From assembly GCA_963838925.1 (NCBI GenBank), contig CAWISW010000003.1, positions 384,001-448,000 on the forward strand: DNA of 64,000 nucleotides, read 5' to 3'. The stretch comes from an uncultured Nitrososphaerota archaeon. GTDB lineage: Archaea; Thermoproteota; Nitrososphaeria; Nitrososphaerales; Gagatemarchaeaceae. Shown piece by piece: positions 10,870 to 14,324 of the stretch (position 1 is the stretch's first letter; the number at the start of each line of letters is the position of its first letter). Position numbers and translations under genes: made by a program. A model generated the notes under the pieces. It worked only from the letters and a program-made list of their open reading frames with translations. It had not been told where the DNA came from and did no database searches.

Positions 10870-11208
10870 ATGGGAATGAAGATCAACGACAGGAACGCGC
10901 GCCGCATGATGGAGCGCATGGGAATCAACCAGAAGGAGATTCCAGACGTCCAAGAGGTAATCATAAGGACGGCCACCAAGGACTTGGTAATCGCCGACGC
11001 ATCCGTCTCAGAGGTCGTCTTCCAGGGCAACAGGGTATTCCAGGTCGCGGGAGAGGTGGAAGAGGTCGCCAAGGAGGTCAAGAAGTTCTCCGACGACGAC
11101 ATCACCCTGGTCCAGCAGCAGGCCAATTCGACGAGAGAGAAGGCCATAGCCGCGCTCGAGCAGTCAGACGGCGAGGTGGCTAAGGCCATCATGCTCCTGA
11201 CTTCCTGA
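10870..11208 (+). CDS. nac: Nascent polypeptide-associated complex protein
   Basis: RRMMERMGI...EVIIRT and UBA-like DDDITLV..QA...AIAAL...G.VAKAI. Confidence 0.92.
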   Translation: MGMKINDRNARRMMERMGINQKEIPDVQEVIIRTATKDLVIADASVSEVVFQGNRVFQVAGEVEEVAKEVKKFSDDDITLVQQQANSTREKAIAALEQSDGEVAKAIMLLTS

Positions 11209-11291
11209 TTTTCGCAACTCCAGGGCCTTCGATTCAGGAACCTTCCTTCCGCGGTTTACAAACGGTTCTGTTCCGTTGATTAGGTGGTCGC

Positions 11292-12488
11292 TCATGGTGT
11301 TTCACTTTGGGTGGTAAGCGCCTTGGTGAGGAGGGTTAGCCACTTCTGTTCCCCTTGAACCCCGATTCCCGCCGCGTCTGCGGGGGTCTGCCCTTCCAAG
11401 GCCTCATGGGGCTTGACAAAGTTATAGTGAATCCGCTGGCCTTCGGCCAGCGTGGTCTTCATCGACTTCCATCCGCGCTGAACCTTGATTCTCTCACGAA
11501 GGGTGCCGTTCATCCTCTCGACCCGGTTGTTATTGGCGTGAGGCTTGCCGACACCCATCCTCGCCACCAACTCAGGCCTCGCGCTCTCCCCTTCCCAATA
11601 GGTCAAGGCCTGCGGGTAGGCGCTCAAGCCGTCTGCGAATATCTTCTCAGGCTCGCTCCCGTTGGCGTTCCGTCTTGCCTCGTTGAAGACCGCTACGGCC
11701 CCGTTCACATTCCTGTGCTGTGAAAGTCTGGACGCGAGAAGAAATCTCGTCTTCCTGTCCATCACATTCCAGAGGTAGGCCATGTTCTTCTGCGGCTTGC
11801 TTCTGTCCATGCCTCCCTTCGCTGTCTCTCCACCCCTCATCTTCACGAAGACCTCATCCGCCTGCCATGTCTCTGAAAGTTGGGGGGTCAGGCTGTTCAC
11901 ATACTCGGAAATCTTCGGCACGAAGGTTTCAATCCACCGATAGATTGAGGTCGCGCCCATCTCCGTCCCGAATTGGCTGTTCACGGTTCGGGCAATCTTG
12001 CGAAGGCTCATGCCTGAAAAGTAGAGGTCGAGGGTGAGACTGACAACCTCCGGCGTGTATCTCGACCCTCTGATTAGCGCCTGCTCTCTGAACCTGTGGC
12101 CGCAATCGTTGCACTTGAAGGCCTGCCTGCCGTGCGAGTTTCCAAACCGGATGACCTTGATCGACCCGCACTTTCCGCATTGAACCGCGTCGTCTGCGAA
12201 GACCTTTGGCTTGGGCTTCTGCTGAATCTCGACCCTTGCGGCAATCCACAGCTTGACCGCGAGCGCATGCTTGCAGGCCTCTATCTGGTCGGCTCTGGTC
12301 TCAAAGTCCGGACATGAACAGACCCACGATTGGCCGAGGAGTCGGACTTCATAGGCGAGGCCTTCCTTGCTTTGGGACGGGACGCTGAACGAGCCGTTCT
12401 GATTCTCGGTTATCCTGTTCTGCTCACAGATTACGAGCGCTTTCGTCATTCTTGCATCCCCCGCGTTTTGCTGAGACATGTTAGGCAC
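11292..12488 (-). CDS. DDE transposase (IS6/IS240 type) with N-terminal SWIM and Zn-ribbon domains
   Basis: CSCPD...CKH SWIM, CGKCG/CNDCG ribbon, WQADE, ADG..AY, NNNRVER. Confidence 0.9.
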   Translation of the reverse strand: MPNMSQQNAGDARMTKALVICEQNRITENQNGSFSVPSQSKEGLAYEVRLLGQSWVCSCPDFETRADQIEACKHALAVKLWIAARVEIQQKPKPKVFADDAVQCGKCGSIKVIRFGNSHGRQAFKCNDCGHRFREQALIRGSRYTPEVVSLTLDLYFSGMSLRKIARTVNSQFGTEMGATSIYRWIETFVPKISEYVNSLTPQLSETWQADEVFVKMRGGETAKGGMDRSKPQKNMAYLWNVMDRKTRFLLASRLSQHRNVNGAVAVFNEARRNANGSEPEKIFADGLSAYPQALTYWEGESARPELVARMGVGKPHANNNRVERMNGTLRERIKVQRGWKSMKTTLAEGQRIHYNFVKPHEALEGQTPADAAGIGVQGEQKWLTLLTKALTTQSETP

Positions 12489-12549
12489 CTAAGTATTAGA
12501 TACCTAACTATATCAACCTTTAGGTATCTAATCCTTATTAGGCTCCTAA
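12481..12549. promoter_or_regulatory. Four TTAGGnnCCTAA-like palindromic operators in the divergent promoter
   Basis: 12481-12492, 12496-12507, 12520-12531, 12538-12549; fifth copy at 13575-13586. Confidence 0.75.
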
Positions 12550-12566
12550 GAGAAGGCCTTGGAGTA

Positions 12567-12731
12567 ATGAGGTTGCAGAAGCAGAAGACGCGAGAGGTGA
12601 AGGGGAAGGAATACTTCCGGTGGACGGTTGTGATTCCGCCCGATGAGGTGGAGGGACTTGGATGGAAAGAAGGAGAGGAACTAAGGCCAAAGAGAGAGGG
12701 TAAGAAGTTGGTCATTGAGAAGAATCCTTGA
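12567..12731 (+). CDS. AbrB/MazE/SpoVT-type DNA-binding protein
   Basis: VVIPPDEVEGLGWKEGEEL swapped-hairpin motif. Confidence 0.8.
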   Translation: MRLQKQKTREVKGKEYFRWTVVIPPDEVEGLGWKEGEELRPKREGKKLVIEKNP

Positions 12732-13557
12732 TGTCGGTTGCCCTCTCTTCGCCTGACTGTCTCTTCCTGATTTCTTCATAGTATTTCAGGCTCATTTCCT
12801 CTCTTACCTTCTCAGCGAATTCTTCGAATGTCTTGTCGTCTTTGAAGTATCTATCTACGGCGCTCGCTTCCCATGTCTTGAACGCCACTCTCTTGAGATA
12901 GGACTCGGATAACCACTTCCAGTCGTTGAAGTGGGGGTCTAATACCGAACCCTCAGGAGTCTTCTCCATTTCCCGAAAGTCCATCTGATGAGGCTTCGAA
13001 TCTGGTTCGAGAATGATGACATCGGGAAGCCCGCCGACACTTTCATCGAGTTCCAACCTCTCCACCATGCTGATTGCGAAGAATGAACCTCTCCACATGT
13101 GCAAGATGCTGGAATCATACTCGTGGAGTAGTCTTACAAAGGGAGAGGCGTAGGGCGAGCCATGACCGACTATCGAGTAGGTCTCGACTTCCTCTGAGAA
13201 TCCCTCTTCCTCGATCAACTTGATTCTTGGAGCGCCCGAAGTGAGCTTGTCGAGGCCCATAATCAGGACTCCAAACCCGGGCCAGTTGTATCCAAATCTG
13301 GGCCTGTAGCGCTTGTAGAGTTCGCTAACGATGTCCTCAGCTTTCATCGCAAGAGAAGTGAAGTCCTTTGCCTCTATCTCCTTCATTTGCGGAAGGAAAT
13401 AGTCCAGCATGAACTTTCCGCCCGCCGCACCTATTACGGCACCATTAGGAAGGATGAACATCTTTTCCTGCTCCTCGGCCTCGTATCCACTTAGAACGCG
13501 CCTATCTGCTACCATCACCGCGCCATTCTTGGACTTCTGCGCCACGATGCAAGTCAT
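12712..13557 (-). CDS. Proteasome beta-subunit-like Ntn hydrolase (passenger gene)
   Basis: M-T1-CIVA...ADRR(D17)...EK(K33)...GAAG...IVGHGS...SVGG; no propeptide. Confidence 0.8.
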   Translation of the reverse strand: MTCIVAQKSKNGAVMVADRRVLSGYEAEEQEKMFILPNGAVIGAAGGKFMLDYFLPQMKEIEAKDFTSLAMKAEDIVSELYKRYRPRFGYNWPGFGVLIMGLDKLTSGAPRIKLIEEEGFSEEVETYSIVGHGSPYASPFVRLLHEYDSSILHMWRGSFFAISMVERLELDESVGGLPDVIILEPDSKPHQMDFREMEKTPEGSVLDPHFNDWKWLSESYLKRVAFKTWEASAVDRYFKDDKTFEEFAEKVREEMSLKYYEEIRKRQSGEERATDIKDSSQ

Positions 13558-13606
13558 CGGCTTGCGATAGAGCTTTAGGTTCCTAAAAGGCTTGCGAGGG
13601 TGCGAG

Positions 13607-13882
13607 TTGCCATACGGATACGGGGTAGTCGGAATTTCGACATTCGCGGGTTTCATCTTCGGAATATGGCTCCAATTTTCGCAACCTACCAACAGCGAGT
13701 CACTCCAATACATCGGTTATCTGCTCTTGGCGGTCGGACTGGTCAGCATGTTCGGGAATAGGAAGGCCGTTACCGGATTTCCGGGCGGTTTGTTGACGGG
13801 CGTTGGACTCGGAATCACCCTTGCCTCCGAGCCCGGATTCAGGCAATCCTTTTCCAATTTCTTCCCCTCGGCAGGACAATAG
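13607..13882 (+). CDS. Small 3-TM membrane protein (passenger gene)
   Basis: Hydrophobic Gly-rich helices; divergent from the proteasome-like gene across an operator palindrome. Confidence 0.55.
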   Translation: MPYGYGVVGISTFAGFIFGIWLQFSQPTNSESLQYIGYLLLAVGLVSMFGNRKAVTGFPGGLLTGVGLGITLASEPGFRQSFSNFFPSAGQ

Positions 13883-14099
13883 AAGAAAGAACAGGGCGAG
13901 AACGAAAAACAACAACCCGGCTTGAGGGATTCTAAGAATCAAGGTGAGGCCGCCGACTGCGAGGAAAAGCCCGAAGAGTCGTCTCGCCACCCCCTTCTGG
14001 AACGCCCGCAACCTTACGGAATCAACGGAACAGAACCTTACAAACGGTCAGATATGCATAAATACGGTTCACCAAAGCAACGGAAGCACAGAGTTTCAA

Positions 14100-14324
14100 A
14101 TGCCAGTAGTCGACCCTGAGCTTGCAATTGCCGCCGCACTCGTGATGGCAGGCGGCCTGATCGGAACCGGTATCGCCCAGCAGGGCATCGGCGCTGCTGG
14201 CATGGGAATCATCGCCGAGAAACCCGAGAAGTTCGGCCAGGTTCTCTTCTTCTTCGTCATCCCAGAGACCCTGTGGATTATCGGCTTCGTTCTCGGAGTA
14301 ATCCTACTCCTCAACATCCTCTAA
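14100..14324 (+). CDS. atpK: A/V-type ATP synthase subunit K (c), single hairpin
   Basis: AQQGIGAAGMG...EKPEKFG...IPETLW. Confidence 0.93.
   Translation: MPVVDPELAIAAALVMAGGLIGTGIAQQGIGAAGMGIIAEKPEKFGQVLFFFVIPETLWIIGFVLGVILLLNIL

Follow-up and report, generated by a model that had tools for sequence, protein, structure and literature searches.

Insertion sequences of the IS6 family are recognized by an 8-bp target duplication and by short inverted ends that start with GG, according to the accounts given in parts of PMC7986276 and PMC6807381. Those accounts name one member that carries a passenger gene, ISDsp3 (PMC7986276), and argue that the archaeal elements filed under IS6 form a separate group (PMC6807381). 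Proteasome homologues are a second subject relevant here, and 22 families of these are listed without functions in PMC8665760, whose main text contains 0 occurrences of transposases, AbrB or Thaumarchaeota. In this report, we describe a transposable element that carries genes for a transposase, a small AbrB-like protein and a proteasome-fold hydrolase. The element lies in a stretch of 64,000 nucleotides (hereafter the window) from an uncultured Nitrososphaerota archaeon of the Gagatemarchaeaceae (assembly GCA_963838925.1, contig CAWISW010000003.1, positions 384,001 to 448,000).

The same three genes recur together in related elements, where they share a palindrome at their promoters, and the hydrolase and its AbrB partner have been exchanged from one element to another. 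We favor, with a probability of roughly 60%, a model where these two proteins form a repressor-protease module, co-regulated and shuffled, by which the element is controlled or assisted. No published description of such an element was found in full-text literature searches, whose scope did not extend to ISfinder. A survey of the Thaumarchaeota mobilome reports 244 insertion sequences from 13 families (PMC6563490), and neither AbrB nor a module of this kind was found in the available portions of that survey.

The element and its insertion site

The element occupies positions 11264-14037 of the window (2774 bp). Its terminal inverted repeats are complementary at 18 of 18 positions, with GGTTCTGTTCCGTTGATT at the transposase end (11264..11281, + strand) and its partner at the hydrolase end (14020..14037, - strand). 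When the comparison is extended inward, 20 of 22 bases match. Reading of the adjoining sequence reveals identical copies of TTACAAAC immediately to the left (11256..11263) and to the right (14038..14045) of the element, which form an 8-bp target-site duplication. By simple counting, a perfect 18-bp inverted pair would be expected by chance in 3.7 kb with a frequency of about 1e-4, and an adjacent 8-bp duplication in 1 of 65,536 cases. The GGTTCTGTTCCGTTGATT repeat has only two copies in the 1.84-Mb genome, both of which are the ends of this element. Thus, the genome-wide search that was proposed in an earlier note on this DNA, made from the sequence alone, reveals no further copy.

On one side of the element is a gene for a NAC-domain protein (10870-11208; Pfam NAC, 51.6 bits), and on the other side is a V-type ATPase cluster whose first gene begins with an ATG at 14100. 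In two genomes of the same genus, G012 and G014, the site is empty and the NAC gene directly precedes the ATPase gene. The G012 site has one TTACAAT in place of the window's duplicated TTACAAAC. Both junctions are spanned with 0 differences by short-read contigs from two soil metagenomes, possibly including the sample of origin, and loose contig ends at the junctions in these metagenomes resemble the relatives with the empty site.

The inverted ends, the duplication, the empty sites in congeners and the junction-crossing contigs together indicate a real and fairly recent insertion. It is virtually certain that this is a genuine mobile element, and it transposed as a single unit, from inverted end to inverted end, into the spacer between the NAC and V-type ATPase genes. 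The earlier note had described an intact, recently inserted, IS6-like element with perfect 18-bp ends and an 8-bp duplication, and this description holds. The same note would have been refuted by relatives that carry the hydrolase at this locus without the repeats, and in the two congeners the site is simply vacant.

Recurrence of the three genes

When 301 genomes of the class were searched with a profile for hydrolases of this family, about 15 of them proved to carry a family-type protein that is distinct from the lower-scoring canonical subunits. Among 18 loci with a family-type hydrolase, 11 have the hydrolase gene convergent with an AbrB gene, which is followed by a transposase gene that points the same way as the hydrolase gene. 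Two others have the hydrolase gene convergent with the transposase gene, and the remaining five have no transposase in the available DNA, which in one case is a contig of just 1.7 kb. Two additional trios are present in another class of the phylum, and overall the combination of hydrolase, AbrB and transposase is found in at least 20 related elements.

Contigs that represent one genome per species contain 323 relatives of the transposase, and the kin of the window's transposase are found in Nitrososphaerota. At the best 79 of these 323 loci, an adjacent hydrolase gene is present 13 times and an AbrB gene 14 times, which corresponds to 12 loci with both genes, one with the hydrolase alone and two with AbrB alone. 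Matches to the hydrolase profile near three other transposases (L087, L092 and L121) were rejected as host alpha or beta subunits, which were recognized by a propeptide or by alpha-type N-terminal motifs. A further match, L024 (60.8 bits), was set aside as uncertain.

A second copy of the element, located in a genome of the same genus (G018:C2), is 2370 bp long. It has ends identical to those of the window copy and is flanked by an 8-bp duplication of its own, CGCCTCCG. Its hydrolase, located at the same position, was missed by tblastn, yet the protein passes the Pfam Proteasome model and starts with Met-Thr-Thr. An unrelated member (G183) has perfect 25-bp ends and an 8-bp duplication, GTAAAAGA, and all three genes lie between them. 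In total, the trio is enclosed by an element's own inverted ends and 8-bp duplication in three cases. When a simple end-finder was applied to 13 elements, it identified ends plus a duplication in three, ends alone in one and nothing convincing in nine.

A third copy (L022, G018:C7, 4074-6800) has a transposase gene split by a frameshift and a degenerate end repeat with a one-base insertion, together with an intact AbrB gene and its own hydrolase allele. This copy is a decaying element. Two other members carry 750-950 bp of further DNA, either after the transposase gene or between the AbrB and transposase genes (L056, 8608-9360; L060, 7021-7968).

A shared palindrome and the AbrB-like protein

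The AbrB and transposase genes are divergent, and the control region between them (12481..12549) includes four TTAGNNNNCTAA palindromes, at 12481, 12496, 12520 and 12538, as well as a central TATA-like CTATATC. Two of the palindromes are positioned at -28 to -17 and at -13 to -2 from the transposase ATG at 12479. A fifth copy, TTAGGTTCCTAA, is located at 13575..13586, 29 bp ahead of the ATG of the hydrolase gene. There are five matches to this 12-bp palindrome in the window, all of them in the element, compared with 0.27 expected and a maximum of two in 100 shuffles. One 12-bp palindrome is thus present at all three promoters.

This arrangement is retained in relatives. The palindrome upstream of the hydrolase gene is located at exactly -29 in the window and in six relatives. 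One further relative has it at -32, and the variants TAGGTACCGA, TAGGCGCCTA and TAGGCACCTA occupy the same position in distant elements. It was not found upstream of four solitary hydrolase genes. At least one palindrome precedes the transposase gene in 16 of 20 hydrolase-bearing elements, versus 2 of 67 transposase-only elements, and these two are the only transposase-only elements that have AbrB. The inner bases of the palindrome co-vary per element, such that all copies read TTAGGCGCCTAA in L081 and TTAGATATCTAA in L097. The co-occurrence of palindrome and protein suggests that the palindrome is the AbrB operator, and that an AbrB dimer would bind TTAGNNNNCTAA.

The AbrB-like protein itself (12567..12731, + strand) is a putative repressor of 54 amino acids with a probable AbrB/SpoVT-type DNA-binding domain. 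The claim of an AbrB regulator in the earlier note finds support in the family, where 18 of 20 orthologues match PF04014 at E<=0.01, although the window protein scores 17.8 bits and falls below the cut-off of 24.7 bits. The sister copy in G018:C2 scores 26.4 bits. The matching Pfam model bears the name MazE_antitoxin. Transposase-only relatives are without AbrB and the palindrome, and the AbrB gene therefore belongs to the hydrolase module and not to the transposase. Its C-terminal tail is the sole part of the protein that changes with hydrolase type. A complex prediction for the hydrolase with two AbrB copies gave a score of 0.00 with no controls, which is evidence neither way.

We consider it very probable that these genes constitute a conserved, co-regulated module. 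The earlier note had called the hydrolase cargo. That term implies a chance passenger and is too weak, since at least 20 related elements have the hydrolase in a fixed module with AbrB and a shared palindrome.

Exchange of the module among elements

The three genes differ in how well they are conserved between copies. The window and G018:C2 copies share 96% identity in the transposase, 84% in AbrB and 28% in the hydrolase, and the two G018 copies (C2 and C7) share 92%, 73% and 34%, respectively. For the elements L080 and L084, the corresponding values are 67%, 85% and 60%. Across all pairs, hydrolase similarity does not track transposase similarity (Spearman 0.14). Homology between the window and G018:C2 breaks inside the 3' end of the AbrB gene and, on the other side, just past the end repeat. 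Breaks at these positions look like the result of cassette exchange.

A tree of 87 transposases, 20 of which are from hydrolase-bearing elements, was built with FastTree without bootstraps. The hydrolase-bearing rows are scattered on this tree, with 16 changes of which at least 12 are forced by well-supported branches. Because of this scattered distribution, we conclude that the module is often gained or lost, and that sister elements exist with and without it. The module is absent from the tree rows for Bathyarchaeia, Thermoplasmatota and Methanotrichaceae. When transposase-only sisters of one element were searched for its inverted ends, nothing usable emerged, as the ends diverge too fast. 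Taken together, the comparisons show that the module has been exchanged among related elements.

The proteasome-fold hydrolase

The hydrolase gene (12712..13557, - strand) codes for a Thr1 hydrolase of the proteasome family with 281 amino acids. The protein has no propeptide and begins with Met-Thr, wherein the ATG is located directly before the catalytic Thr codon. The 3' end of the gene overlaps the 3' end of the convergent AbrB gene by 20 bp. The Pfam Proteasome model (PF00227, cut-off 22.4 bits) is matched with 30.3 bits by the window protein, 26.5 bits by the G018:C2 protein and 39.7 bits by the G027 protein, and the family profile matches both alpha and beta subunits in PDB with E values from 5e-21 to 1e-13.

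The predicted structure has a mean pLDDT of 88.7 (56-row alignment) and a helical tail that begins at about residue 213. It superposes on the T. acidophilum beta subunit (6bdf_1) with a Z score of 24.5 and an rmsd of 1.9 A over 189 residues, and residue 2 of the model falls on residue 1 of the chain. Archaeal 20S beta matches have Z scores of 24.0-24.5, and Rhodococcus beta and Anbu are near-tied at 23.4-23.9. Foldseek returns an E value of about 1e-13 for the model. The Ntn fold with Thr1, Asp17 and Lys33 that was predicted in the earlier note is confirmed by this superposition and by the conservation described next. The other traits listed there are also present, namely the start without a propeptide, the GHG in place of GSG (the sequence VGHGSPY is found at the GSG position of beta subunits) and the helical C-terminal extension.

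Among 25 hydrolases (20 element-borne and five solitary) with a mean identity of 20%, no columns are invariant other than T2, D18, K32, G46 and G131. The first four of these correspond to Thr1, Asp17, Lys33 and Gly47, which are named as the catalytic set in the account of PMC8665760, and the same columns are nearly invariant in the alignment of 56 hydrolase sequences. In 21 of 24 relatives, a start codon (ATG, TTG or GTG) directly precedes the Thr codon. Since only the catalytic residues stayed constant, the hydrolase is probably an active protease that has been kept active while the remaining protein changes fast.

Two other assignments for parts of the open reading frame (ORF) were rejected. 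A propeptide upstream of Met53 (ORF start at 13713) would include a conserved PFRxLK, but this is the palindrome read as protein, and the codon score is 0.059. A match of the C-terminal tail to interferon-gamma is a low-complexity helical coincidence with 14 bits per stretch.

In a word-index search of 5.8 billion clusters, the hydrolase had just two close relatives, at 60% and 48% identity, and a full HMMER scan returned 153 clusters at E<=1e-3. No relatives were detected in JGI metagenome contigs when either the single protein or a three-sequence alignment was used as the query. Three family members (P0050, P0059 and P0091) are fused at the C terminus to TPR or NHL beta-propeller repeats, and fusions of this type point to protein substrates. 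Three solitary genes from Nitrosopumilaceae genomes (L064, L065 and L162) code for proteins in which the first helix pair is followed by a helical insert of ~60 residues. These genes are without AbrB, transposase or palindrome, and they may be domesticated copies.

The transposase

The transposase gene (11292..12488, - strand) codes for 398 amino acids if translation begins at the GTG at 12488. However, the likely start is the ATG at 12479, which directly abuts a palindrome and yields 395 amino acids. The protein carries SWIM, Zn-ribbon, helix-turn-helix (HTH) and DDE regions. It matches the Pfam model DDE_Tnp_IS240 (PF13610) with 54 bits versus a cut-off of 27, which identifies an IS240/IS6-type DDE domain. 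The best NCBIfam match is to the IS6 model (NF033587) with 98.9 bits, below the curated cut-off of 125, and NCBIfam models for IS1 (56.7 bits) and for the IS1/IS1595 Zn domain are also matched. The SWIM match is weak (15.1 bits, below the cut-off of 19.6), and the residues of its CxC...CxH motif (C57, C59, C72 and H74) are invariant in 10 transposase relatives. The same is true of the Zn-ribbon cysteines (CxxC...CxxC, of the IS1/IS1595 kind) and of D211, D286 and E324. The earlier assignment of a SWIM-Zn-DDE transposase is upheld by the DDE match and by these invariant residues.

The genome that contains the window also has three distant paralogues of the transposase, from the same superfamily, with 34-35% identity (G000:C2:509201-510286, C3:179356-180492 and C2:411384-412202). 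No hydrolase was detected beside the two of these that were examined. In addition, two transposase copies that are 57% identical to the window's are present on a contig (L099) from a bin labelled as a bacterium. Either the contig is archaeal and was mis-binned, or a transfer has occurred.

Proposed function and alternatives

In the model we prefer, AbrB would repress the hydrolase gene, its own gene and the transposase gene together via TTAGNNNNCTAA. The sites that lie at about -29 to -17 relative to the start codons of the hydrolase and the transposase would correspond to the TATA-box position of a leaderless archaeal gene. The hydrolase would most likely act within the element's own circuit. 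It might remove AbrB and thereby serve as an anti-repressor, which would create a double-negative on/off switch that permits bursts of transposition, or it might turn over the transposase and limit transposition. That the protease acts on one of these two proteins is a tentative proposal, to which we assign somewhat less than even odds. Quite unlikely, in our estimation, is a complete toggle in which AbrB silences the protease and the transposase, and the protease destroys AbrB via the variable C-terminal tail to cause burst firing. The rapidly swapped protease and tail alleles would in that case prevent cross-regulation among co-resident elements.

Several observations dampen our enthusiasm for a repressor-protease module that serves the element. 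The module is dispensable for transposition, given that 63 of the best 79 of the 323 transposase relatives have no hydrolase match of any kind and that three more have just host proteasome genes nearby. AbrB is conserved (84%) and the hydrolase is not (28%), a pattern at odds with the simplest expectation for a tightly coupled protease and substrate. The AbrB tail that is linked to hydrolase type is physically linked to the 3' end of the hydrolase gene, and the two genes are convergent and do not form an operon. Five hydrolase genes occur without a transposase or palindrome, which implies that the enzyme can work outside the element. Moreover, when labels are shuffled on the transposase tree, the mean is 18.2 changes, and 61 of 500 shuffles are as low as the 16 observed. 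The palindrome could alternatively be a shared promoter element. Finally, no RNA run contains the element, and so the promoters, leaderless starts and repression are predictions.

Some of these same features fit a different role, in which the protease is a payload that hits host, viral or rival-element proteins for defense, counter-defense or interference with the 20S proteasome or an unfoldase, while AbrB is a mere transcriptional silencer. The divergence and allele swapping resemble an arms race, in that three elements with transposases at least 90% identical carry hydrolases that are only 28-34% identical. Such a payload would also agree with the sporadic distribution of the family, which is present in some 15 of the 301 genomes searched, with the existence of solitary copies and with the NHL or TPR fusions of some members. 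A weak match to the PHROG 'HslV family peptidase' over hydrolase residues 1-93 suggests that phages carry such genes, and phage-borne proteasome homologues, PPH and AAH, are reported in the sections of PMC8665760 that treat them. However, none of the four element proteins has a PADLOC match and no neighboring defense genes are present within the element. The hydrolase and transposase promoters share the palindrome at the same offset, which ties expression of the protease to the control of transposition. We regard the payload as a rather unlikely explanation. An addiction module is decidedly improbable. The hydrolase would be the toxin, and the AbrB/MazE-fold protein would be the antitoxin and auto-repressor, such that the pair stabilizes the element, much as toxin-antitoxin pairs reportedly do in Tn3-family transposons (Lima-Mendez et al. 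2020). The match of AbrB to the Pfam model MazE_antitoxin, the variation of its tail with hydrolase type and its presence at 12 of 13 hydrolase-bearing loci (with AbrB alone at just two, among the best 79 of 323) would suit this arrangement. However, convergent genes with overlapping 3' ends do not constitute the co-transcribed operon of a type II toxin-antitoxin system, solitary hydrolase genes without AbrB would be intolerable if the product were a lethal toxin, and we know of no proteasome-fold toxin.

It is very nearly out of the question that an ordinary insertion sequence once captured a neighboring proteasome-like gene as a chance passenger. Insertion sequences with passenger genes do exist (for IS6, the ISDsp3 example introduced above from PMC7986276), and the trait is scattered across the transposase tree. 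But the gene order, the AbrB partner and the fixed-offset palindrome are the same in elements whose transposases are just 30-35% identical, and the trio elements are not near-copies of one recent element. The trio is moreover enclosed by the elements' own ends and duplications in three cases, and the catalytic residues of the hydrolase are invariant.

The co-regulated repressor-protease module, if correct, would matter in several ways. A proteasome homologue family to which no function has been assigned is now found in a testable context, where three genes form a unit and a candidate regulator, a defined DNA site and candidate substrates are at hand. Here, too, a lineage of insertion sequences has, in addition to its transposase, a conserved module of accessory regulatory genes, which bears on the restraint of transposition in archaea. 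Near-identical transposases accompanied by hydrolases that are 28-34% identical, with the catalytic residues fixed, amount to a natural experiment in how the specificity of the proteasome fold changes. Elements of this type are present in soil and sediment Nitrososphaerota, including ammonia-oxidizer lineages, and reshape genomes there. If the toggle were true, an 'orphan' proteasome homologue family would have a function for the first time, and archaea would have their first example of a transposon switch that is gated by a protease.

Other features of the locus

The window copy has an extra segment (13600..14019) that holds a hydrophobic ORF running from 14011 to 13700. The earlier note took this ORF to code for a small membrane protein. 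It has no family match in Pfam, NCBIfam, PADLOC or PHROGs, and its codon score is -0.125 bits/codon versus 0.21-0.28 for the hydrolase and the transposase. The extra DNA (345-420 bp) is absent from the sister copy in G018:C2 and has no match in 40 relatives. For these reasons, we do not count the ORF as a gene. Contigs from two more metagenome samples (X3 and X4) match positions 13703-13986 alone with 0 differences, and the segment may exist in other contexts.

A TATA-like sequence, CATAAATA, is located ~15 bp downstream of the element (in window positions 14038-14110) and ahead of the first V-type ATPase gene. The core promoter of this gene is seemingly spared, and all DNA upstream of the core promoter has been shifted by 2.8 kb through the insertion.

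Comparison with known systems

The element shares with the IS6 family an IS240/IS6-type DDE domain and an 8-bp duplication. As far as the descriptions cited at the outset extend, its ends resemble those of archaeal members by starting with GG and by a length of ~18 bp, and the transposase motif E..N...R.R resembles the archaeal signature E--F---K-R. The element differs in its size, which is 2774 bp versus the 700-900 bp given in those descriptions for IS6 (700-750 bp for archaeal members), and in a transposase of 395-398 amino acids with added SWIM and IS1-like Zn-ribbon domains. It also differs in having three genes, which include two accessory genes and a putative repressor-operator circuit.

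In the integrative element ICEBs1, the protease ImmA acts as an anti-repressor on ImmR. The present element resembles this pair, by analogy of logic only, in that a small repressor would control a recombinase gene and is encoded beside a protease. The metalloprotease fold of ImmA and the repressor fold of ImmR are unrelated to those of the hydrolase and AbrB, and cleavage of AbrB is hypothetical here.

The hydrolase belongs to the proteasome superfamily, and the comparisons below set it apart from 20S beta subunits, HslV and Connectase. A likeness to archaeal 20S beta is apparent from weak matches of 44 of the 56 family members to the equivalog model TIGR03634 (best E value 3.6e-13), although the scores are far below the family cut-offs, and the window protein matches TIGR03690 only, with 18.7 bits versus a cut-off of 191.9. 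Unlike 20S beta, the hydrolase has no propeptide and no paired alpha subunit, and in members of its family the GSG of beta subunits is replaced by GHG or by variable residues. It also sits in a mobile element, and the host has canonical subunits of its own, as seen in relatives. The HslV model is matched by 2 of the 56 members with a best E value of 0.001. Connectase, as characterized in the relevant part of PMC8665760, is without the first helix pair (H1/H2) and carries a two-helix S3/S4 insert, whereas the hydrolase model has helices at 48-60 and 66-88 and no S3/S4 insert. Anbu aligns with a Z score of 23.4 over 206-216 residues, including the C-terminal helix. This comparison is structural only, and the neighbors of the window hydrolase are AbrB and the transposase.

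The hydrolase most resembles the uncharacterized WPH, ACC and PHI groups (Fuchs, Alva and Lupas 2021, PMC8665760), with which it was compared by description only. In the terms of those descriptions, the common features are the lack of a propeptide, the set of Thr1, Asp17, Lys33 and Gly47, similarity to both alpha and beta subunits, long C-terminal helices and occurrence in archaea. The long helical insert after H1/H2 is shared as well, in family members L058, L059, L064 and L065.

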